In this document: one piece after another, positions 7,403 through 41,281 of the stretch | Numbering within the stretch: position 1 is the stretch's first letter | Layout: each line of letters opens with the position of its first letter | Source of the DNA: a virus | Lineage: Duplodnaviria > Caudoviricetes | Reading direction: 5' to 3' (one strand) | Length of the DNA stretch: 56,484 nt | IMG/VR virus record: IMGVR_UViG_3300049437_000074 | Location: 1 to 56,484 of that record | Position numbers and translations under genes: made by a program | The notes under the pieces: model-generated | The model's input: the letters and a program-made list of their open reading frames with translations, nothing else | What the model was told of the DNA's origin: nothing | Databases searched by the model: none

Positions 7403-7701
7403 CCGAACTCGCCCCCCTCTAACCGGCTCAACAGATCATCAACATTCCTTGACGCCTTCTCAGGTTCATCCTTTGAAGTAGCTGACCCGTCACCATTTGA
7501 AACAACTTTGATTTGGTCTATCTGCGCTTTGATGGCCCGCAGTTCGTTTATTATTTCGGTCAACGATGGCTCTTTAGGGTTGCCCATATAGAGCCGGATT
7601 GCTGCCTTAATTTCGGAGGTCTTGAATCCGTCCTTCACCCTAGCTAACCACTCGACTATATCTTTATCAAGACTTTCGTCAAGCTTTAGTAAAAGCTTCA
7701 T
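7399..7701 (-). CDS. ParR-like centromere-binding adaptor
   Basis: Immediately downstream of the actin-like ATPase; N-terminal LKLDESLDKDIVEWL...IKAAIRLY RHH-like pattern and flexible C-terminus. Confidence 0.65.
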   Translation of the reverse strand: MKLLLKLDESLDKDIVEWLARVKDGFKTSEIKAAIRLYMGNPKEPSLTEIINELRAIKAQIDQIKVVSNGDGSATSKDEPEKASRNVDDLLSRLEGGEFG

Positions 7702-8681
7702 TATTCCACCCGCTTACCAAACTTCAAGTATCCGGCGGCGTTAGCCCATTGGGGATTGTTTATCATTTTGGCTTGGGGGTGTTGCTCTATAATCACCGGG
7801 GCGATTGCTTCAGCACCGCCCCCGCATATTAATAGCATATCCAACCTGACAGCACTTCCCCACACTTGAGATGCCTCTCCTAAAATCTTACGGGCGAAAG
7901 ACGAGACTACATCATAAATAATGCCGTTGACATCCTGGGGGATTCCCCGGCGCTTAATTGAGCCGCTTTGCAACACTCCGATAGTCTCATGGCCGTGTAG
8001 ATTTTGGCCGGGGTAGGCTGCGTTTATTCGCTTCTCTACTTCGGACAAGACTGACCACATACCGGCGTCAATCGAAAGGGTTTGAGTAGGGATAGCCCGC
8101 AGTTCTTTGAATGTGGAAACGTTGATTGTGCGGCCTCCGATGTCAATCAGTCCGATCATTCCATCGGCTATCGGGCCGGGTTTGATTTTGCCGTTATCAT
8201 CTAATGCCTCAGAAAAGACAGCGGCCAAACCTTGAGGCAAACAGATGACCTTATTGATAGTAATCTGTTGCGCTTTGCGGTTTGGCCGTGTAATTTTATG
8301 CGTCCCTTGCAGGATGGATTTGAGCTTGCCTTGTGACCCAAAGTCCCCTACCGGCAAACCCGTTACCAGATCAATGCTGGCCTGGGTTGCCTGAGTCATT
8401 TCACTGAGTAGATACAAGTGTAAGGCTAGATATTCGGGGGTAGTAATCCAGTCGGGGTCTTGTCTGCGGGTTACAAACCGGGATTGCTCCAAAGCGGCTT
8501 GTCCTAAAAACCACTCACCTTTTTCGGTGCCGATTTGAGTAGCATGGCCGTTGGTTTCAAGGTTATCCCGGCTGTAGTCAGTCCGTTGAACCTCCCCCCA
8601 AACGCTTTCGATAATAATCCGCTTGCCACTTGGGTCAACGCCCTTTGAGTGAGAATAGCCTACATCAGTTACTTTTAGCAT
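7701..8681 (-). CDS. parM: ParM/StbA-family actin-like partition ATPase
   Basis: Actin-fold motifs DVGYSHSK, VTGLP, PQG, IDIGGRT, CGGGA and ANAAG; 326 aa. Confidence 0.9.
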   Translation of the reverse strand: MLKVTDVGYSHSKGVDPSGKRIIIESVWGEVQRTDYSRDNLETNGHATQIGTEKGEWFLGQAALEQSRFVTRRQDPDWITTPEYLALHLYLLSEMTQATQASIDLVTGLPVGDFGSQGKLKSILQGTHKITRPNRKAQQITINKVICLPQGLAAVFSEALDDNGKIKPGPIADGMIGLIDIGGRTINVSTFKELRAIPTQTLSIDAGMWSVLSEVEKRINAAYPGQNLHGHETIGVLQSGSIKRRGIPQDVNGIIYDVVSSFARKILGEASQVWGSAVRLDMLLICGGGAEAIAPVIIEQHPQAKMINNPQWANAAGYLKFGKRVE

Positions 8682-32120: not shown

Positions 32121-32393
32121 GTGGAGATTCCTGTAAGTGAGTTTTTGGTTTTCGGCGCTATCATTCTGGCTATCGGCGTAGTTCTTATAGTTGTTCTGGC
32201 CGGTGGGATTATCTCCCTTATTGACCGGGCCGACCTACGCAAAGAACGCCGCCGGTTAGCCGACGAAAACAAATCCTTAACAACCGAAGTTTTCGAGCTA
32301 CGGGGTCGGGTAATGATCCTCGAAGCCAAGTTACTGGCCGCACTTGAGCAGATTCAAACCCTGAGCGCCAGCCTGAGCGGGCCGCCCGAATGA
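32121..32393 (+). CDS. TM plus coiled-coil protein
   Basis: Long hydrophobic N-terminus, then heptad repeat; ATGA-coupled to receiver gene 1. Confidence 0.65.
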   Translation: MEIPVSEFLVFGAIILAIGVVLIVVLAGGIISLIDRADLRKERRRLADENKSLTTEVFELRGRVMILEAKLLAALEQIQTLSASLSGPPE

Positions 32394-32935
32394 AGTCCGT
32401 ACTCTTGGTAGAGGACCAAAACGGCTTTATTGCCCAGGCCATTTTGGAGAGTTACGGCGGCATGCGTGTGACGCTGACCGCCAGGGGTGATGAGGCGATT
32501 GAAAAGCTGGCCGGTGAAACATTTGACGGGGTAATCTTGGATCTCCGTTTACCAGTAGTCAGCGGTTTTGTGGTCCTGGAAGCTATCAAGCGAATTGACC
32601 CAAACACGCCGGTGGTAGTGTTATCGGCTTTTGGTGACAAGGTTAGCCGCGAACACGCCGCCCGCCTGGGAGCCGATGGCTACATTGTCAAGCCGCCGGA
32701 TTACCGTAAGCTTCACGACAAAATATCTGGCCTGATGGCACAGCGCCAGGCGACGGAAGCGGCAAACCACCGCTTTGATACCTTGACCCTAACCGGCGAT
32801 AACGGCCAAAAAATAGCCAAGATGCGCCGGCTGCAAAAGCTCAAAGAGCAGGCGGCGAAAATGGGAATGAACACCCCGCCGGATATAACGATTGAGATAG
32901 AGGATTTAGAGGGAGAAATAGCGGAATGGCGCTGA
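32390..32935 (+). CDS. Response regulator receiver (CheY-like) with short helical C-terminal module
   Basis: VLLVED, ILDLRLP (phospho-Asp), LSA and YIVKP are all intact. Confidence 0.92.
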   Translation: MKSVLLVEDQNGFIAQAILESYGGMRVTLTARGDEAIEKLAGETFDGVILDLRLPVVSGFVVLEAIKRIDPNTPVVVLSAFGDKVSREHAARLGADGYIVKPPDYRKLHDKISGLMAQRQATEAANHRFDTLTLTGDNGQKIAKMRRLQKLKEQAAKMGMNTPPDITIEIEDLEGEIAEWR

Positions 32936-33456
32936 TACTTTTGATAGATGATGAGGAAATGGTGCGAGATGTAATCCGGCACACGTTGGCCGATGAGCAT
33001 ATGATAGTTGAGGCGTCAACCGGCCTGGATGCGCTGCGGCTGGTAAAGCTGGCAAAACCGAGTTTGGTCATTCTGGACATTCACCTCGGCACCGAACCAG
33101 AGGGGCCGGAAGTCTGCAAAATCCTACACGATAATCCTACGCTGGCTGGTATGCCGATTTTGGCTATATCCGGCTGGGCGGACCGCGATGAAATCAGCAA
33201 TATTTTAATCAGAGACGGGGCGGTCACGTTTCTGGACAAGCCATTCACGCCGACCGAATTAGTAACCGTAGTCACCTATTTACTGGCTCAAAACAAAGGA
33301 CAATTAGCCCGGCTGATAAACGCGCTGGGCGAGAATGCTTTAACCAACGAAATCCACGCCGCTATCACAAACGGCAATTCCTACAAGATTGTGCGTTCAC
33401 TTGAGGCCGGAATCGCACTGGCTAAAGCTGAGTTTGTAGATGAGGAAAAAGAGTAG
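32926..33456 (+). CDS. Response regulator receiver (CheY-like) with uncharacterised C-terminal extension
   Basis: ILLIDDE, ILDIHL, ISG, FLDKPF. Confidence 0.92.
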   Translation: MALILLIDDEEMVRDVIRHTLADEHMIVEASTGLDALRLVKLAKPSLVILDIHLGTEPEGPEVCKILHDNPTLAGMPILAISGWADRDEISNILIRDGAVTFLDKPFTPTELVTVVTYLLAQNKGQLARLINALGENALTNEIHAAITNGNSYKIVRSLEAGIALAKAEFVDEEKE

Positions 33457-34084: not shown

Positions 34085-34527
34085 AACAGGTAGAAATCAG
34101 AGCGAAATAGGAGACAACGTTATGGACGAAGCACTAAAGAAAATCGTTGACCTCATTAATAACTATGTTGGCGGCCTTATCAACGTGGCCGAAATGCCGG
34201 ACGCCGATAAAGCCGAACTCAAAGCGCACCTGTTGGCGGCTGAAAATATCCTGCTCAAAAATGGTAACGTCAAGTTGCAGCAGGTCGTTAGCTCTATTGC
34301 CGGTGCGGTATTGAGCCGGTTTTAGGGCGACAAATGACACACGTTACACCCACCACAAGCCCCACCACGCCCCTACACGGCGCACCACCTAAAAAACTAT
34401 GCGGCACCCGGCCCCGCGCCGGAAATCGGCGGCATAGCGGCGGGCTGTGAGGTGATACGGTGGGGGTTTGGAGTGAGGGAAAGCGGGGCGATTGCGGCAG
34501 GATGGGCGCTACGGAAAAAGAGATTTG

Positions 34528-35478
34528 ATGACTAAGGAAACTATTGACATTTGGCCTGATAAGTTCCTAAAACGAGAGCTATTGACCGCTGGTGAGCTTG
34601 CCCAGCGTTTCAATATCCTTAACCCCCGTAGCCACCCCGAATCCCAACGCTCCGCTACTGAGTCCAGCCTTGATACTGTAGGCTGGTTTGATGAGATAAG
34701 TTTATCTATCAACGGCGATGGGCCGGCGTCTCTGCTTGACAACCCCGACGCCGTTATGTTTGATGGTCACGAGCGCGTAGTCCTGGCTTTGGCGCGGGCA
34801 GGTGAAGGTGGGCTTGTGCCGGTCAAGTGGTACGGCTTAACCCCGGCTGAAACGGACTTCGCTCTTTTGGTCAAAGACCAGATAACAGAGATGGCAGAGA
34901 CAAAGTCGACTGAGTTAGCCGCTTTGTTAGAGCGCACTAAAACAATGACGGTTGACCCGCGTCTGGCCGGGATGTTAGAGACACTAAAGCAGCGGGCGGC
35001 TGATGGGTTGTTAAACCAACAAGGGAACGGCGCAAGCGGACAAGGGCAAGCAGATTTTGTTAGCTTATCAGACCGTTTCATAGTTCCCCCTTTTAGCGTA
35101 CTTGATGCCAGACAAGGCTATTGGCAGGAACGCAAGCGGGCGTGGTTGGTGCTGGGGATTCAAAGCGAATTAGGGCGGGGTGAAAACCTGCAAGGGTTAT
35201 CAGAGAGTAACGATACTGATCGTTACTCTAAACAGGAGTATTTATCCCGCAAGCCCAACGCCACGCCCGGCGGGTCGCCGCTGGAAGCGGCGACCCTAAA
35301 GAACGGCAAAACCGTTAGAGGCGACGGACGCGGCAGACCCCTAGACGAAAACCCCGGGGGGGGTAACACGGATGGCAATGCACAACGACCCGATGCAGCG
35401 CAAGCGAAAATACGACGCGGCTACGCCAGAACCTTCGGACAAGATTTGATGAGAGGGGAGCATAAGATTGAAAGATAA
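34528..35478 (+). CDS. ParB-like N-terminal domain fused to the N-terminal part of a DNA methyltransferase
   Basis: NPRSH...GW...DGHER ParB motifs, then SLSDRFIVPPFSVLDARQGYWQERKRAW..LGIQSELGR, followed by low-conservation modules. Confidence 0.75.
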   Translation: MTKETIDIWPDKFLKRELLTAGELAQRFNILNPRSHPESQRSATESSLDTVGWFDEISLSINGDGPASLLDNPDAVMFDGHERVVLALARAGEGGLVPVKWYGLTPAETDFALLVKDQITEMAETKSTELAALLERTKTMTVDPRLAGMLETLKQRAADGLLNQQGNGASGQGQADFVSLSDRFIVPPFSVLDARQGYWQERKRAWLVLGIQSELGRGENLQGLSESNDTDRYSKQEYLSRKPNATPGGSPLEAATLKNGKTVRGDGRGRPLDENPGGGNTDGNAQRPDAAQAKIRRGYARTFGQDLMRGEHKIER

Positions 35479-35572
35479 AGCTGTGCCAGGTGGCAGCAGA
35501 TGGCCCGCTTCCAAAATAGGCCAGGATGGCAAATTTGGCCGGGCTGATTTACATATGCGGGGGGGCAAGTGA
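35468..35572 (+). CDS. 34-aa peptide module between the two methyltransferase halves (not in ORF track)
   Basis: TTG start with GGGGAG RBS; KDKAVPGGSRWPASKIGQDGKFGRADLHMRGGK resembles NATPGGSPLEAATLKNGKTVRGDGRG upstream; GTGA overlap with the next ORF. Confidence 0.45.
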   Translation: MKDKAVPGGSRWPASKIGQDGKFGRADLHMRGGK

Positions 35573-36420
35573 GTAGCCCAGCATTTCGACCTAATGAGGA
35601 TTTACCAGAAGAAACCCAACGCAAGTTAGGCGGTTATATGGCAAACGGCGCGGTCATAGACCGCGCCGAGGGTGGGTCAACTGGCACGTCCATTTTTGAC
35701 CCCGTTCTATGTGAGCTTGCCTACCGCTGGTTTTGCCCTCCCGATGGCCTTATTCTTGACCCCTTTGCCGGCGGCTCAGTACGCGGTATTGTCGCCGCCA
35801 TGCTAGGTAGGCGATATATCGGTATAGATTTAAGGCCGGAACAGGTAGAGGCAAACCGGGCGCAGGCGCAGCAGATAACGCCGGATAATTTACCCGTCTG
35901 GATTGTGGGAGATAGCCGCAATTTAAGCGAGCTAATCAGCCAGCCGCTTGACTTTATCTTTTCTTGCCCGCCTTATTATGACTTTGAAGTATATAGCGAC
36001 GATCCGCAGGATTTAAGCACAGTGGCAACTTATCGGGAGTTTATAGAGCTTTACCGGGCTATCATTGCTCAGGCGGTTGGCCTGTTAAAGCCAGACCGCT
36101 TTGCCTGTTTTGTTGTCGGGGATATACGGGATAAAAAGGGCTTTTACTGTAACTTTGTCAGCGACACCACCAATGCGTTTCAAGACGCCGGGGCGATGCT
36201 TTACAATGAGGCTGTGCTGATAACGGCGGTGGGCAGTTTGCCGATTCGCGTGGGTAAACAATTTGAGGCCGGGCGTAAGCTGGGCAAGACCCATCAAAAT
36301 GTACTGGTATTCTGTAAGGGCGACCCCCGCAAAGCTACCGAGGCTATAGGGCCGGTTGAGGTATGGCTTCCTGAGACAGAGGCAGAATCGGGCGAGTATG
36401 GCGAGGAGTTGGTATTGTGA
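35569..36420 (+). CDS. DNA amino-methyltransferase catalytic part
   Basis: GTSIFDPVLCELAYRWF, LDPFAGGSVRG (SAM binding), FSCPPY (catalytic variant), KTHQNVLVF. Confidence 0.88.
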   Translation: MSSPAFRPNEDLPEETQRKLGGYMANGAVIDRAEGGSTGTSIFDPVLCELAYRWFCPPDGLILDPFAGGSVRGIVAAMLGRRYIGIDLRPEQVEANRAQAQQITPDNLPVWIVGDSRNLSELISQPLDFIFSCPPYYDFEVYSDDPQDLSTVATYREFIELYRAIIAQAVGLLKPDRFACFVVGDIRDKKGFYCNFVSDTTNAFQDAGAMLYNEAVLITAVGSLPIRVGKQFEAGRKLGKTHQNVLVFCKGDPRKATEAIGPVEVWLPETEAESGEYGEELVL

Positions 36421-37157
36421 ATTTACCCGCGCCGATTGTTGAAGATCATAATGGTATAGCCGTTGTCAGGGATGACCTTATACCCGGAGGCACAAAAGCC
36501 CGTTACTTGATAGAGTTATTTAGCCGGTATGATGAGATTGTTTATGCTACCCCCGCTTACGGCGGCGCTCAATTAGCCCTTGCCTATTGCGCCAGAGTAA
36601 CCGGCAAAAAGGCGACTCTATTTGTAGCTAAACGCAAACAGCCCCACGCCAGAACCTTAGAGGCTCACAAGGTAGGGGCGCGGGTATTTCAAGTGCCTAA
36701 CGGCTATCTATCAAATGTCCAGAGCAAAGCCAAAAAGTACTGTCAGGACAAGGGGGCTTTTTACTTGGAGTTTGGCGGGGAGAGCGAGCAGGCGTTAGAT
36801 TTAATAGCCGAGGCCGGTGCTTATGTTTGGGGTACTTACGGCCCGTTTGAGCAGGTATGGACAGCGGCAGGCAGCGGCGTATTAACGAGGGGATTACAGC
36901 GGGGTATACCGGGTGATTTTGTAGCCGTTCAAATTGGACGGGATATTGACAAGCCGGGCCGGGCTAAAGTAATAAAACACCCCTTACCTTTTGAGAAGGA
37001 ATCGGGCGCTGTGATTCCGTTTCCGTCCTGCCCTAATTATGACCGTAAGGCGTGGGATATTTGCCAGCGGTCAAGTAAAGGCCGGGTATTGTTTTGGAAT
37101 GTTTTAGGGCAATCGCCCACAATTCACACCCAACCCCCGCGCCTCGTTAGCGGGTGA
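36417..37157 (+). CDS. PLP-dependent enzyme, fold type II (ACC deaminase / D-cysteine desulfhydrase-like)
   Basis: VVRDDLIPGGTKAR (Schiff-base Lys), AAGSG phosphate loop, YDRKAW, LFWNV. Confidence 0.8.
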   Translation: MNLPAPIVEDHNGIAVVRDDLIPGGTKARYLIELFSRYDEIVYATPAYGGAQLALAYCARVTGKKATLFVAKRKQPHARTLEAHKVGARVFQVPNGYLSNVQSKAKKYCQDKGAFYLEFGGESEQALDLIAEAGAYVWGTYGPFEQVWTAAGSGVLTRGLQRGIPGDFVAVQIGRDIDKPGRAKVIKHPLPFEKESGAVIPFPSCPNYDRKAWDICQRSSKGRVLFWNVLGQSPTIHTQPPRLVSG

Positions 37158-37170
37158 GCGAAGATACCTT

Positions 37171-37842
37171 ATGACTGAATGGGAACGATTACCAGATGAG
37201 TCAATGAAGTGGTTTTGCCGGTTTGAGGTCTTTCGACTGGCCGGCCCTAACCGCTCACTACTAGGCGTTTACAATACTGAGCAAGACAGGAATAGCCAAA
37301 AAAAGACATACAATGTACCTGGCTCCTGGCGTGATGCTGCTATCAAATATCACTGGCATCAGCGGGCAGAGGCTTACGATGTAGCCGAGCAGCAGCGCAA
37401 AACAGCAGAGAGGGAGGCTTATCTAAGGGGCCTGCCAACGGAGTTTGATGAAAAGTATCGCTACATCCACGAGCAGGCCCTGGCTGCCTGGCTGCGTAGT
37501 CTTGAGGATGCGGTAACGGAAACAAGCGAGATGGTAGAAGTCCCTGAGATGACCAAAGACGCTAAAGGTAATCCAGTGGTAACGACCAGTCAGCGAATGA
37601 AGGCGCAAACCCGCAAAGAAGGGCAATCCGGCAACCCGGCGCTGCTGGCCCAGGCACAGGCGGCGCTGAAGGCCATCCGGGAAATGTTTGGGGTGGATGC
37701 GGCCAGCCGGTCAGACTCCACCACCTTTGAGCTAACCGAGGCCATGCTACGCGAGGCCACGCCTGAGCAGATAGAACAGCTACGCGCCGGAGTCAAGCCG
37801 TGGCTGATATTCGCGGGGCCGGGGGTGGGGGTGGACAAGTGA
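37171..37842 (+). CDS. terS: Terminase small subunit
   Basis: WERLPDES...F..F..GPNRSL...W..RAEAYD pattern; upstream of the large subunit. Confidence 0.7.
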   Translation: MTEWERLPDESMKWFCRFEVFRLAGPNRSLLGVYNTEQDRNSQKKTYNVPGSWRDAAIKYHWHQRAEAYDVAEQQRKTAEREAYLRGLPTEFDEKYRYIHEQALAAWLRSLEDAVTETSEMVEVPEMTKDAKGNPVVTTSQRMKAQTRKEGQSGNPALLAQAQAALKAIREMFGVDAASRSDSTTFELTEAMLREATPEQIEQLRAGVKPWLIFAGPGVGVDK

Positions 37843-38169: not shown

Positions 38170-39609
38170 ATGACACACGCCTACGCACCCCCGCGCGGCA
38201 AATCCCTGACCACCTGGCAAATTCAGGCGATGGCAGAGATCGAGTGGCGGCGGAGGGAGGAAGAAGCGGCGGCTCCCGTTTATCAGCCTTACGGCGCGGT
38301 GGCTGATTTCTGGCAATCTGAAGCCAGGGAGGCCATTCTCAGCGGGCCAGCAGAGACCGGCAAGACACGCGGGGCATTAGAGAAGCTTCACCTGCTTTTG
38401 TCAAAGTATCCAAAATCACAGGCGGCTATGGTTCGCAAGCGGTACACCGACATGCCCGGCTCTTGTATTCAGACGTGGGAAAAAAAGGTGCTCGGTAACA
38501 AGTTGTCAGACACCGGCCCGATAACCAAGTACGGCGGCGAAAAGCCCCAATTTTACGATTATCCCAATGGCAGCCGGTTATGGGTTGGCGGGCTGGATAA
38601 TCCCGGCAAAGTCCTGTCAAGTGAGCGTGATTTCTTCTACGTAAATCAGGCAGAGGAATTAGATTTGACCGACTGGGAAACCATCACCACGCGAGCCACA
38701 GGCCGGGCCGGTAACGCGCCTTATTCGCAGATATTCGGTGATTGCAACCCTGGACCGCGCACCCACTGGATTTTAGAGCGAGCCAACGAAAACAAGCTGA
38801 AATTATTACACAGCCGCCATGAGGATAACCCCACACTGTTTGATCCTGTCACCGGCCTGATAACCCCACAGGGAATTATCACTCTGCAAATTCTTGACAA
38901 CTTAACCGGGATGCGCCATGCCCGATTGCGACTGGGTAAGTGGGTTAGCGCGGAAGGGTTGATTTACGGGGATTACTATGATCCGGCAACACATCTTGTA
39001 GACCCGTTTGACATCCCCGCCGATTGGCAGAGATTCCGCTGTATTGACTTTGGCCTTGTCCACCCGTTTGTTTGTGGATGGTGGGCAGTGGATGGTGACG
39101 GGCGGTTATACCTTTATCGGCAAATTTACATGACGGGCCGGACGGTGGCAACCCACGCCAAACAGATTAAAGAGCTATCGACAGATGAGCGCATTGTCCA
39201 GACGATTTGTGACCACGATGCGGAGGACAGGCAAACCCTGGCCGAAAATGGTATCCCCAATATTGCCGCCAAAAAGGATGTTTTACAAGGGATCGGTAAA
39301 GTTCAAGACCGGCTCAAAAAACAAGCCGATGGTAGACCGCGCCTTTACATCTTCAAAAATAGCTTAGTCGAGTTGGATTATAGCCTAAAGAATGACCATA
39401 AACCATACGCGGTAGAACAGGAATTTGACTCGTACCAGTGGGCAGATACGTTAAAAGAGCAGCCAGTCAAAAAGTATGATGACGGGATGGATATGAGCCG
39501 GTATATGATTATGTACTTTGAAGGTTATTCTCCTCCTGCCGGTCAAACTGTCAACAACATACCTGATGATACTTACAAAACCAGCCGACAGCGGCTAACG
39601 AGGCGATAA
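38170..39609 (+). CDS. terL: Terminase large subunit
   Basis: GPAETGKT, NQAEE, DCNP, CIDFG, DDGMDMSRY. Confidence 0.93.
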   Translation: MTHAYAPPRGKSLTTWQIQAMAEIEWRRREEEAAAPVYQPYGAVADFWQSEAREAILSGPAETGKTRGALEKLHLLLSKYPKSQAAMVRKRYTDMPGSCIQTWEKKVLGNKLSDTGPITKYGGEKPQFYDYPNGSRLWVGGLDNPGKVLSSERDFFYVNQAEELDLTDWETITTRATGRAGNAPYSQIFGDCNPGPRTHWILERANENKLKLLHSRHEDNPTLFDPVTGLITPQGIITLQILDNLTGMRHARLRLGKWVSAEGLIYGDYYDPATHLVDPFDIPADWQRFRCIDFGLVHPFVCGWWAVDGDGRLYLYRQIYMTGRTVATHAKQIKELSTDERIVQTICDHDAEDRQTLAENGIPNIAAKKDVLQGIGKVQDRLKKQADGRPRLYIFKNSLVELDYSLKNDHKPYAVEQEFDSYQWADTLKEQPVKKYDDGMDMSRYMIMYFEGYSPPAGQTVNNIPDDTYKTSRQRLTRR

Positions 39610-39610
39610 A

Positions 39611-41281
39611 ATGACAAACCTAATCCAGCGCACCTTTGAAGCAATCGGCCTAACTACTCAAGACCAACTTCAGGCCGAATTAACCCGCGCCGTTGAAGCG
39701 GTCACGGCCCAGACCGCCACCGAAAAGACCCGCGCTTACGAGGCCGGATTCTATGACGGTATGAACGGCAATGATGAGCCGGTTAGCGGGACGCTTGCCA
39801 GCTATGGCTATAGTCGCGTCTCTACCGGTAAGCGTGATTTTAGTAATATGTCACACGATCAGCTACTAAACATCGCCTGGATACTCTACCAATCCAACCC
39901 CCTAGCAAAGCGTTACCTTGAGATTGTGAGGGATCATATTCTAGGCCGGGGCGTCAAGCACACAACGGAAGATGAGCAGCTTAGAGAAATCTTTGACATC
40001 TTCTGGAAACGCAACAAAATGAGCGCTAACCTAAAGGACTTCGTTCCTCAAAAGCGTTCTTTTGGTGAGCAATGTTACCCGGCTTTTGTTCGTGAAAGTG
40101 ACGGACGGGTAACACTGGGCTACATAGACCCGTCCGACATAGAACACGTTGTCACTCACCCACAGAACGTATTAAAGCGGGTAGCAGTTATCCTCAAGTA
40201 TGATGCCACTAGTAGCCGGCGCAAAATGTACCGCATTATTACCGAAGATGAGGGCTATGTTCGGGGCAATCGGGTGATACTCCCTAAATTCGATGGCAAG
40301 CTCGTTACCCATACCCAGGTGGAAATTGAGCCATACGAACAACTGATGTTAGAGGCAAACGGCCTAACTGAGTACACCGGCTCCTGTTTTTACTACAGCG
40401 TTAATAATGTCAGCAATCAACCACGCGGGGTCAGTGACTTTTTGCAGGTGGCCGATTGGTTAGACGCCCACGATGAAACTCTATTCGCTATCGCAGACCG
40501 GGAACAAATGGCCGGGTATTTTAGTTGGGACGTGACCCTGGATAACATTGACGAGACAAAGGTAAAAGAGAAAGCGTCCGAAATACGTCAACGTATCCCT
40601 AAAAAAGGGCAGGTACTTGTCCATAATGATAAAGAGCATTGGGAGATGAAAGCCCCCGACCTTAAGCAGCAGGCCAGTATTGCCACGTCTGACGCCCTTA
40701 GTGACCTCGCTTGGGGTATGCTGGGGATGCCCAAAACCTGGCGCGGTATTGGAGAGGGTACAAACTACGCCAGCGGGCTAACAATGGGCGAGCCAACCCG
40801 TAAGAGTCTGGAAAGCAAACAGGATGACGCCAAAGATATGATTATAGAAATGCTCACCTTTGTGCGGGACCAGGCCGAAATAGCCGGTTACTACACCCCC
40901 CAAACCAAGCGCCAAATTACAACCCCCGATGGGGCCGAGCGCACTGAGGCCATAGAGCATCCCGGCGAATTTGATGTGACAATGCCAGAGATGAGTGCTA
41001 CCGATATGGGACAGGTGGCAACGGCACTACCTCAGATTGTCAATGCTCTGAGTGTGCTTGTCAACGATTTGCGGGTAGTTAGCCGGGATAGAGCAGCAGA
41101 GGTAACAGCTAAGATTTTAGCTGAAATCGGGATTAAATACGATGCTCATGAGGAATTGGAAGCGGTAGACAACGCCAAAGAAGATGATACCCCCGACGAT
41201 CTGGCAACCGCAGACGCGGCGAATAAATATTTGAATGGACTTTTGCAAGTCAACGGAAACGGTAAAGATGCCAACGCCTAA
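39611..41281 (+). CDS. Portal protein
   Basis: 556 aa after terL; NPLAKR...GRG, FGE, RGVSD motifs. Confidence 0.85.
   Translation: MTNLIQRTFEAIGLTTQDQLQAELTRAVEAVTAQTATEKTRAYEAGFYDGMNGNDEPVSGTLASYGYSRVSTGKRDFSNMSHDQLLNIAWILYQSNPLAKRYLEIVRDHILGRGVKHTTEDEQLREIFDIFWKRNKMSANLKDFVPQKRSFGEQCYPAFVRESDGRVTLGYIDPSDIEHVVTHPQNVLKRVAVILKYDATSSRRKMYRIITEDEGYVRGNRVILPKFDGKLVTHTQVEIEPYEQLMLEANGLTEYTGSCFYYSVNNVSNQPRGVSDFLQVADWLDAHDETLFAIADREQMAGYFSWDVTLDNIDETKVKEKASEIRQRIPKKGQVLVHNDKEHWEMKAPDLKQQASIATSDALSDLAWGMLGMPKTWRGIGEGTNYASGLTMGEPTRKSLESKQDDAKDMIIEMLTFVRDQAEIAGYYTPQTKRQITTPDGAERTEAIEHPGEFDVTMPEMSATDMGQVATALPQIVNALSVLVNDLRVVSRDRAAEVTAKILAEIGIKYDAHEELEAVDNAKEDDTPDDLATADAANKYLNGLLQVNGNGKDANA

Follow-up and report, generated by a model that had tools for sequence, protein, structure and literature searches.

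A ParB-like, CPPY-type transferase and PLP enzyme locus beside the terminase genes of a phage points to an undescribed DNA base modification

What might a pyridoxal phosphate (PLP) enzyme be doing in translational coupling with a protein of the DNA methyltransferase fold? This question is raised by a locus in the virus record IMGVR_UViG_3300049437_000074 (Duplodnaviria; Caudoviricetes), of which we analyzed the whole stretch of 56,484 nucleotides, hereafter the window, a record estimated to cover 78% of its genome. An open reading frame (ORF1) with a ParB-like domain, a methyltransferase core with a Cys-Pro-Pro-Tyr (CPPY) motif and a compact PLP protein lie directly 5' of the candidate gene for the small terminase subunit (terS) and then that for the large subunit (terL), all on the + strand (Table 1). 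The initial annotation, made from the sequence alone, had described a fold-type-II PLP gene coupled by a GTGA overlap to a CPPY methyltransferase directly before terS, all of which is present in the sequence, and had proposed that a group derived from S-adenosylmethionine (SAM) is installed on DNA and then trimmed by the PLP enzyme. This interpretation was partly supported by our analysis. The locus points to an undescribed DNA base modification, for which a chemistry is tentatively proposed below.

The PLP protein as a relative of DNA-conjugate decarboxylases

The PLP protein of the window is a detectable homologue of gp52 of the Pseudomonas phage M6, a purified decarboxylase of DNA conjugates (PMC8989533). 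The role of adduct trimmer proposed for it in the initial annotation therefore has a footing in homology as well as in analogy. The protein matched the PHROGs family phrog_7093 with an E-value of 4.5e-38 over profile positions 15-277 of 279, and gp52 itself (L181:11283-12119; 2.2e-159) belongs to the core of that family. BLASTP returned 22% identity to gp52 over nearly the full length (E 1e-05), and hhalign of our PLP alignment (A1) against gp52 gave a probability of 96.8% (E 2.1e-10, 215 columns). Lys27 of the window protein aligns with the lysine of the gp52 segment PSFSKIRG, presumed to be K36 of PMC8989533, and the two proteins share the motif PFP..P.YD.KAW...FWN(V/I).

According to the available part of PMC8989533, purified M6 gp52 and gp226 of the Salmonella phage ViI are PLP decarboxylases of amino-acid:nucleobase conjugates, which convert C-alpha-GlyT and O-SerT in DNA to 5-NedU and 5-NeOmdU; gp226 was modelled on pdb 1j0a, K36 is the lysine of gp52, and metagenomic fusions join the decarboxylase to enzymes making its substrate. 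The phage-encoded window protein resembles both in its membership of PHROG 7093, its fold type II, the aligned Schiff-base lysine, a basic segment after strand 3 and the C-terminal PFP..YD.KAW..FWN, and each of the two groups is found fused to the enzyme acting before it. The partners differ, however, being a 5-hydroxymethyldeoxyuridine (5-hmdU) DNA kinase and an amino-acid:DNA transferase for gp52 and gp226, and a ParB-(S/C)PPY SAM enzyme for the window family. The word 'ParB' has 0 occurrences in the available text of PMC8989533, and homologues of M6 gp51, gp53, gp54 and gp58 were found in 0 of 75 PLP loci.

Along the window protein we recognized the segment RDD..GGTK with Lys27, a glycine loop AAGSGV, the basic AKRKQPHART and a C-terminal PFPSCPNYDRKAW...LFWNV. 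R18, D19, D20, G24, G25, T26, K27, S153 and G154 were invariant in 44 of 44 aligned PLP sequences, an alignment in which K211, W213, F226, W227 and N228 are the C-terminal invariants. Relatives of near-equal length fall into 1327 protein clusters at 90% identity (E<=0.001), and the family occurs in at least 286 IMG/VR stretches. The match to PF00291 (2.1e-08, 34.3 bits) lies just below the cut-off of 35.

The structural model of the protein, with a predicted local distance difference test (pLDDT) value of 95.4, showed a compact fold-type-II PLP fold. Its best Foldseek matches were 4d9f, a D-cysteine desulfhydrase, and, in second place, 1j0a, a homologue of 1-aminocyclopropane-1-carboxylate deaminase (E about 2e-10, TM-score 0.66-0.71), with O-acetylserine sulfhydrylases and SbnA also among the nearest solved folds, all at about 15% identity. 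Compared with this desulfhydrase and deaminase branch, the window protein is shorter (246 residues versus about 320-330) and has another substrate loop. Searched by sequence against the PDB, the PLP protein gave chance-level matches only, none under E 0.005; a PDB profile search with the family gave weak cysteine-synthase matches, and an ESM Atlas search with the protein gave unnamed viral PALP clusters only.

To our knowledge, every phage DNA hypermodification for which a PLP step is known begins with a 5-hydroxymethyl-pyrimidine that is built in during replication. The initial annotation had seen no 5-hmdU pathway genes, and indeed none was found in the window by Pfam searches of 79 ORFs of at least 75 residues or by PHROGs searches of 56 ORFs; many window ORFs matched no family. 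The same searches revealed no deoxyuridine monophosphate (dUMP) hydroxymethylase, 5-hmdU kinase, aGPT-Pplase (aGPT-Pplase2 transferase) or phage DNA polymerase in the window. Since neither a dUMP hydroxymethylase nor a phage polymerase was found there, the target must be a canonical base modified after replication.

Linkage to a permuted and often split transferase

The linkage of the PLP gene to this transferase is near-obligate. The ParB part, the CPPY methyltransferase and the PLP protein followed each other in that order in 18 of 18 PLP loci (3 phage records and 15 IMG/VR contigs), and 64 of 75 further IMG/VR PLP loci retrieved by profile search had the methyltransferase, located upstream in 56, downstream in 4 and around the PLP domain in 4. 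Of the 11 loci without it, three (L232, L234, L243) offer hardly any sequence upstream. Across these 18 + 75 loci we saw no further gene conserved as a neighbour, the gap from the methyltransferase to the PLP gene in relatives is usually between -13 and +87 nucleotides, and the pair travels together among phages that differ in terminase and host. The co-occurrence expected in the initial annotation thus holds when counted from the PLP protein, including the fusions seen in at least 55 of 60 long homologues, but not when counted from the methyltransferase, which stands without a PLP gene in 40 of 77 loci.

Bacterial genomes gave a different picture, with the methyltransferase adjacent in 30 of 79 PLP loci. 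The remaining genome loci mostly hold distant paralogues (24-33% identity) from Bdellovibrionota, Micavibrio and actinomycetes, near LysR and cytochrome c genes. Five cellular paralogues from Bdellovibrionota and their relatives (L138, L148, L149, L153 and L158; 26-30% identity, 262-276 residues) lie beside a divergent LysR regulator, followed in all but L138 by a cytochrome c gene; these neighbours were considered as a functional clue and gave none.

The two proteins also occur as a single polypeptide. PF01555 was listed in 55 of 60 long PLP homologues; beyond these, P0159 and P0179 also carry methyltransferase motifs, and P0180 is an unrelated dehydrogenase. Three topologies were recognized, in which the PLP domain is inserted between motifs II and III of the methyltransferase (ZS04, R6L, P0126, P0165), with long Pro/Ala-rich linkers on both sides in ZS04 and P0126, or is fused at its C-terminus (P0134, L059), or follows an unrelated N-terminal domain and an SPPY methyltransferase (P0179). 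The SAM-binding motifs are invariant in the fused forms. Other PALP lineages are joined to the same methyltransferase as well, namely AlanGrant gp2 (phrog_3650, KRDDL..NGGKLR), an insert in Pam4, L059 and L076.

The complex predicted for the core and the PLP protein scored 0.55, compared with 0.00 for the best of 3 controls, with a contact agreement between runs of at least 45% and a partner pLDDT of at least 84. Among reference pairs, 58 of 80 solved complexes and 2 of 110 mismatched ones attained this mark, and scores of 0.60 or less comprised only 7 of those 80 and both passing mismatches; the prediction lends weak support to a physical association.

Some relatives deserve separate mention. 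Gp2 of the Mycobacterium phage AlanGrant (L179:1406-2275) is annotated as 'nucleoside deaminase' and is actually a TrpB-superfamily PLP protein; it lies after a ParB-methyltransferase and before terS and terL, and represents a second PLP lineage with the same partner. The fused ParB-methyltransferase-PLP protein P0140 (1129 residues) has an intein-type LAGLIDADG domain (PF14528) inside its methyltransferase and WPPY in place of CPPY. The Erythrobacter phages R6L (L002:1392-2435) and ZS04 (L003:1-939) carry a gene of the 3'-phosphoadenosine 5'-phosphosulfate reductase family about 1.4 kb upstream of the fused gene; no gene of this family was found in the window. A methyltransferase-less PLP subclade (L221:4558-8946, L238, L232, L234) is flanked by PolB/clamp-loader genes on one side and by a PD-(D/E)XK nuclease and a 'GT4-conflict' glycosyltransferase on the other, and in L120 (1911-4421) a TAGT-like glycosyltransferase lies two genes from the PLP gene. 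Such surroundings are typical of DNA hypermodification, and the methyltransferase-less relatives probably belong to other pathways of this kind.

The methyltransferase core matched PF01555 at 51.4 bits (1.8e-13), above the gathering cut-off of 26.7, and further profile matches included TTHA0409, CcrM, MboIIA and N4-cytosine methyltransferases. Its motifs are arranged as X (TSIFDPVLCE), I (DPFAGGSVRG), II, III (GDS) and IV in the variant form SCPPY, followed by KTHQNVLVF, and not in the beta-class order (IV ... X, I); DPFAGGS occupies residues 64-70 and SCPPY residues 132-136. As the beta-class enzyme TTHA0409 (2zie) aligned to the core in two swapped stretches in a profile comparison, the family is a circular permutation of the beta-class N6/N4 amino-methyltransferases. 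A Foldseek search with the AlphaFold model of the core (pLDDT 81.6 overall, above 90 in the central part) favoured enzymes with a linear I-to-IV order, namely PrmA and the exocyclic-amine RNA methyltransferases TrmN and Trm11. Given these nearest folds, the atom targeted by the transferase is probably an exocyclic amine.

Motif I, of the FxGxG type, is invariant in the family alignment as DPFAGGS, and motif IV departs from the consensus (D/N/S)PP(Y/F). A regular expression found CPPY in 76 of 77 loci (71 FSCPPY and 5 FTCPPY, with a miss in L090), and its Cys was invariant in 38 of 38 aligned methyltransferase sequences; the distant fused relative P0179 has SPPY at this position. CPPY was also considered as a mark of the PLP-linked enzymes and rejected, the Cys being family-wide. 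At least 575 IMG/VR stretches encode a member of the methyltransferase family, which ranges over phages of Listeria, Enterococcus, Clostridium, Mycobacterium, Fusobacterium and Haloarcula. The core of the window ends in a conserved acidic tail, ESGEYGEELVL, right before the PLP start, and relatives have D.EN.DLGEEL (alignment A2).

No characterised member of the permuted CPPY family was found in the literature searched. Full-text searches, whose coverage leaves out most subscription journals, returned no paper for 'CPPY' with 'methyltransferase' and no report of a PLP partner of a ParB-methyltransferase. M.EcoGIX and M.BceJIII (PMC7736820) were rejected as relatives, being ordinary DPPY beta-class enzymes. 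The available part of the survey PMC12704722 describes phage fusions of a ParB-CTPase fold with an N6_N4 methyltransferase, enriched in phages and prophages, and that of PMC5512222 mentions a ParB-methylase of B. cereus. The window shares with such fusions a ParB-like N-terminal domain ahead of a PF01555-type methyltransferase; unlike them, its family is permuted (motif I before motif IV), carries CPPY, is often encoded by two ORFs and has a PLP partner, and the words 'PLP' and 'pyridoxal' have 0 occurrences in the available text of either paper. Both parts of the module thus belong to known families, while their pairing, a permuted CPPY enzyme as installer and an action on canonical bases are absent from the literature searched.

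The basis for the name 'ParB-like' given to ORF1 in the initial annotation is indirect. The ORF1 protein itself had no Pfam match at E<=0.01, PF02195 included, but 6 of 9 aligned homologues matched PF02195 (best 1.5e-08), and the N..R and GH.R motifs (N44, R46, G92, H93, R95) are invariant in the ORF1 alignment. As stated in the available part of PMC13229309, ParB-like proteins are known to activate a DNA-modifying phage enzyme on double-stranded DNA. The first conserved segment of the methyltransferase fold (PPFSVLDARQGYWQERKRAW...GRGEN) also sits in ORF1, since two profiles each cover both ORF1 and the core: the single 633-position profile phrog_498 (ORF1 residues 44-223, core residues 36-268) and phrog_12517 (ORF1 residues 183-229, core residues 37-264).

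ORF1 and the core are separated by two stops in the same frame, both within 90 nucleotides. Among 148 distinct loci the junction between the ParB part and the core was continuous in 82, changed frame in 51 and kept the frame with stops in 15 (9 of these having a single TAA or TGA), so that a split at the same variable linker occurred in 66. The three-ORF arrangement of the window recurs in the cultured Microcystis phage Mae-JY30. Such a recurrent split, with a segment of the catalytic fold in the first ORF, raises the question of whether the enzyme has two subunits or is made by read-through.

Proposed chemistry and competing explanations

We tentatively propose that the whole locus encodes a three-part enzyme that would modify DNA after replication. 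Targeting to double-stranded DNA would fall to the ParB-like domain; the permuted, SAM-binding (S/C)PPY transferase would flip out a base and alkylate its exocyclic amine; and the PLP protein, physically coupled to the transferase, would act on the product while still in DNA. Because the substrate of a gp52-family PLP enzyme must be an alpha-amino acid linked to DNA, and the only partner of the PLP protein here is a SAM enzyme, the group moved would be 3-amino-3-carboxypropyl rather than methyl. The acceptor might be N6 of adenine, N4 of cytosine or N2 of guanine, and the PLP step would remove CO2 and leave an N-(3-aminopropyl) base. This decarboxylation of a SAM-derived aminocarboxypropyl group, a chemistry suggested by the homologies described above, seems to us possible, at somewhat less than even chances. 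Relative to the plain nucleoside, the predicted mass shifts are +101.05 Da for the intermediate and +57.06 Da for the final product. Phages with the transferase only would stop at the carboxylated adduct, and the gain might be protection from restriction together with a positive charge on the DNA to be packaged.

Precedents exist for both steps. In microcin C, the methyltransferase-fold enzyme MccD transfers the 3-amino-3-carboxypropyl group of SAM and the PLP decarboxylase domain of MccE converts it to aminopropyl, and TYW2, of wybutosine synthesis, is a methyltransferase-fold aminocarboxypropyl transferase. The former pair follows the two-step logic proposed for the window, and the latter shares the transfer by a methyltransferase fold; however, their substrates are a peptidyl-nucleotide or tRNA and not DNA, and the decarboxylase of MccE is of a different PLP fold type.

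Several observations weigh against an aminocarboxypropyl transfer. The SAM motifs of the core resemble those of ordinary amino-methyltransferases in both profile and fold matches, no feature predicting such a transfer was identified in the core, and no enzyme titled SAM-dependent 3-amino-3-carboxypropyl transferase was among the matches listed for the core by Foldseek (ranks 1-50, with gaps). With an identity of only 22%, the type of reaction could differ from that of gp52, and the transferase of the window, split by two stops, could be inactive. The close methyltransferase loci (60-73% identity) had a PLP-like ORF in only 37 of 77 cases and lacked one in 40 (tblastn gave 36); this count was made with a hidden Markov model of alignment A1 at E<=1 in the fetched region of +-4 kb, and two of the 40 negatives have less than 750 nucleotides downstream. 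On a FastTree tree of 107 methyltransferase rows, 19 of them unlabelled, PLP-plus and PLP-less enzymes were fully intermixed, the 19 PLP-less rows requiring 19 changes where shuffling gave a mean of 17.5, which argues that the transferase has one chemistry whether or not a PLP gene accompanies it. The PLP gene is thus gained and lost freely, and the transferase remains unchanged with it. Moreover, the aminocarboxypropyl idea would have to fit the very large family described above, including phages of Listeria, Enterococcus and Clostridium and haloarchaeal phages. An ordinary methyltransferase accompanied by an optional helper would explain the canonical SAM motifs and the numerous PLP-less loci about equally well.

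Another tailoring gene in the place of the PLP gene was considered for the PLP-less loci and rejected, as in 32 of 36 tblastn-negative loci examined an ORF of the large-terminase type begins at most 1.8 kb downstream of the methyltransferase. The 32 ORFs fall into five clusters (9, 7, 7, 5 and 4 members), whose representatives match Terminase_6N, Terminase_3 (two clusters), TerL_ATPase and GpA. In two of the 36 loci, L059 and L076, divergent PALP domains were found later.

The proposal could be extended to the whole permuted ParB-(S/C)PPY family. That all of its members, with or without a PLP partner, are DNA aminocarboxypropyl transferases and not methyltransferases is a reading we regard as doubtful. 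If it were true, N-(3-amino-3-carboxypropyl) and N-(3-aminopropyl) purines and cytosines would be widespread unseen bases in thousands of phages, with hosts spanning cyanobacteria, proteobacteria, Bacteroidota, actinobacteria, Firmicutes and haloarchaea, and would constitute a DNA counterpart of the aminocarboxypropyl modifications of tRNA and rRNA.

The optional helper could take a definite form. The transferase might be a plain anti-restriction methyltransferase forming N6-methyladenine or N4-methylcytosine (or N2-methylguanine), and the PLP protein, though descended from adduct decarboxylases, might now act on the amino-acid end of a nucleoside cofactor, for instance by destroying S-adenosylhomocysteine (SAH) close to the active site and so relieving product inhibition during mass methylation before packaging. 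We consider this rather unlikely, though it accommodates the canonical SAM motifs, the homology to known amino-methyltransferases and the 40 of 77 loci in which the methyltransferase stands alone, intermixed with PLP-linked ones as expected for an optional helper; the Pro/Ala-rich linkers around the inserted PLP domains of ZS04 and P0126 also suggest a tether. However, we know of no PLP enzyme that acts in this way on SAH, and an SAH decarboxylase would probably destroy SAM too. SAM and SAH, as amino acids tethered to a nucleoside, do resemble the substrates of the gp52 family, but the assayed relatives work on DNA (PMC8989533, available part), and the methyltransferase-less members of the PLP clade, found in replication modules near glycosyltransferases, fit DNA hypermodification and not the upkeep of a cofactor.

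It is improbable, in our view, that the two proteins merely share an operon, the methyltransferase methylating and the PLP protein tailoring an amino-acid adduct made by another, unrecognised enzyme of the phage or host, with a common anti-restriction role as the only link. Room for a further transferase is left by the many window ORFs lacking a family match and by the estimated completeness of 78%, and phages often combine several counter-defence domains in one protein (PMC5512222, available part). Nevertheless, fusions of the PLP domain involve this one methyltransferase family almost exclusively (55 of 60 long homologues), with insertions even inside the catalytic domain, the pair moves as a unit across terminases and hosts, and the 18 + 75 loci showed no further conserved neighbour.

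An even smaller chance is given to installation of the adduct by the PLP protein itself, in which an aminoacrylate from serine, O-acetylserine or a similar compound would react with the flipped base amine to yield an alanyl-type adduct and the methyltransferase would serve mainly as base-flipper. The nearest folds, among them O-acetylserine sulfhydrylases and SbnA, the weak cysteine-synthase profile matches and the insertion of the PLP domain within the methyltransferase domain are consistent with it, but the closest assayed relatives are decarboxylases and not beta-replacement enzymes (PMC8989533, available part), the cysteine-synthase substrate-carboxylate loop TSGNT is replaced by AYGGA, and the SAM motifs, needless if SAM is unused, are invariant in the fused forms. 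Finally, a decaying, idle module, its transferase inactivated by two in-frame stops within 90 nucleotides that leave the first fold segment in another ORF than the core, is the least probable explanation, as the same split occurs at the same linker in 66 of 148 distinct loci, cultured Mae-JY30 included, and both halves and the PLP gene keep every family-invariant residue.

Genomic setting and significance

The coordinates of the module and of neighbouring features are collected in Table 1.

Table 1. Features of the module and of the surrounding window (positions refer to the 56,484-nucleotide window).
Feature	Position	Strand	Matches and remarks
Actin-like ParM-type partition protein	7701-8681	-	PF17989, PF21522, phrog_691
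Second DNA methyltransferase, 513 aa	28907-30448	+	PF01555 3.3e-29
CheY-like receiver-domain protein, first	32390-32935	+	PF00072 6.8e-22
CheY-like receiver-domain protein, second	32926-33456	+	PF00072 5.9e-19
ORF1, 328 aa	34492-35478	+	divergent ParB/Srx-like N-domain (NPRSH, DGHER), first methyltransferase-fold segment (FIVPPFSVLDARQGYWQERKRAW...GRGEN), low-complexity linker
Alternative ATG of ORF1	34528	+	internal to ORF 34492-35478
ORF1/methyltransferase-core junction	35476-35568	+	one frame, two stops, variable linker
Junction stop TAA	35476-35478	+	
Junction stop TGA	35545-35547	+	
Methyltransferase core, 283 aa	35569-36420	+	PF01555 1.8e-13; phrog_12517 2.8e-101
Motif I (DPFAGGSVRG)	35758-35787	+	
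Motif IV variant (SCPPY)	35962-35976	+	
Acidic tail of core	36370-36417	+	
GTGA overlap	36417-36420	+	methyltransferase stop TGA 36418-36420; PLP start GTG 36417-36419
Compact fold-type-II PLP protein, 246 aa	36417-37157	+	phrog_7093 (M6 gp52 family); PF00291
Lys27 codon	36495-36497	+	
terS candidate	37171-37842	+	phrog_6299 5.9e-07 only; no Pfam match
terL	38170-39609	+	PHROGs; TIGR01547 7.3e-17
Portal	39611-41281	+	

Tail genes occupy both ends of the window, which also has host-type replication loaders (DnaD/DnaC-like) and the actin-like partition gene. The ParM-type gene, the loaders and the lack of a phage polymerase in the window suggest a plasmid-prophage lifestyle. The second DNA methyltransferase has SSFPYW in place of the expected SPPY, with a long insert separating motif IV from motif I, and the two adjoining CheY-like proteins are encoded just upstream of the module. 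The initial annotation had also linked such loci to packaging-coupled modification; nothing establishing that link was found in the literature searched, and it is only the position before the terminase genes that is conserved.

The PLP family of the known hypermodification decarboxylases is here tied, often in one polypeptide, to a SAM enzyme, in a phage that replicates with host machinery and in which no 5-hmdU route was found. The module is common, and occurs as well in cultured phages whose hosts are non-pathogenic; cultured carriers include Mae-JY30, the Erythrobacter phages vB_EliS_R6L and ZS04, the Pseudanabaena phage Pam4, and AlanGrant and Vincenzo, grown on M. smegmatis. Even if only methylation took place, a PLP accessory for a DNA methyltransferase would still be new. 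A compact pair that attaches primary amines to DNA would also be useful for labelling. Should the pair place an adduct derived from an amino acid on a canonical base once replication is over, it would represent a second, independent entry to DNA hypermodification in phages, and the product would probably be a new base.

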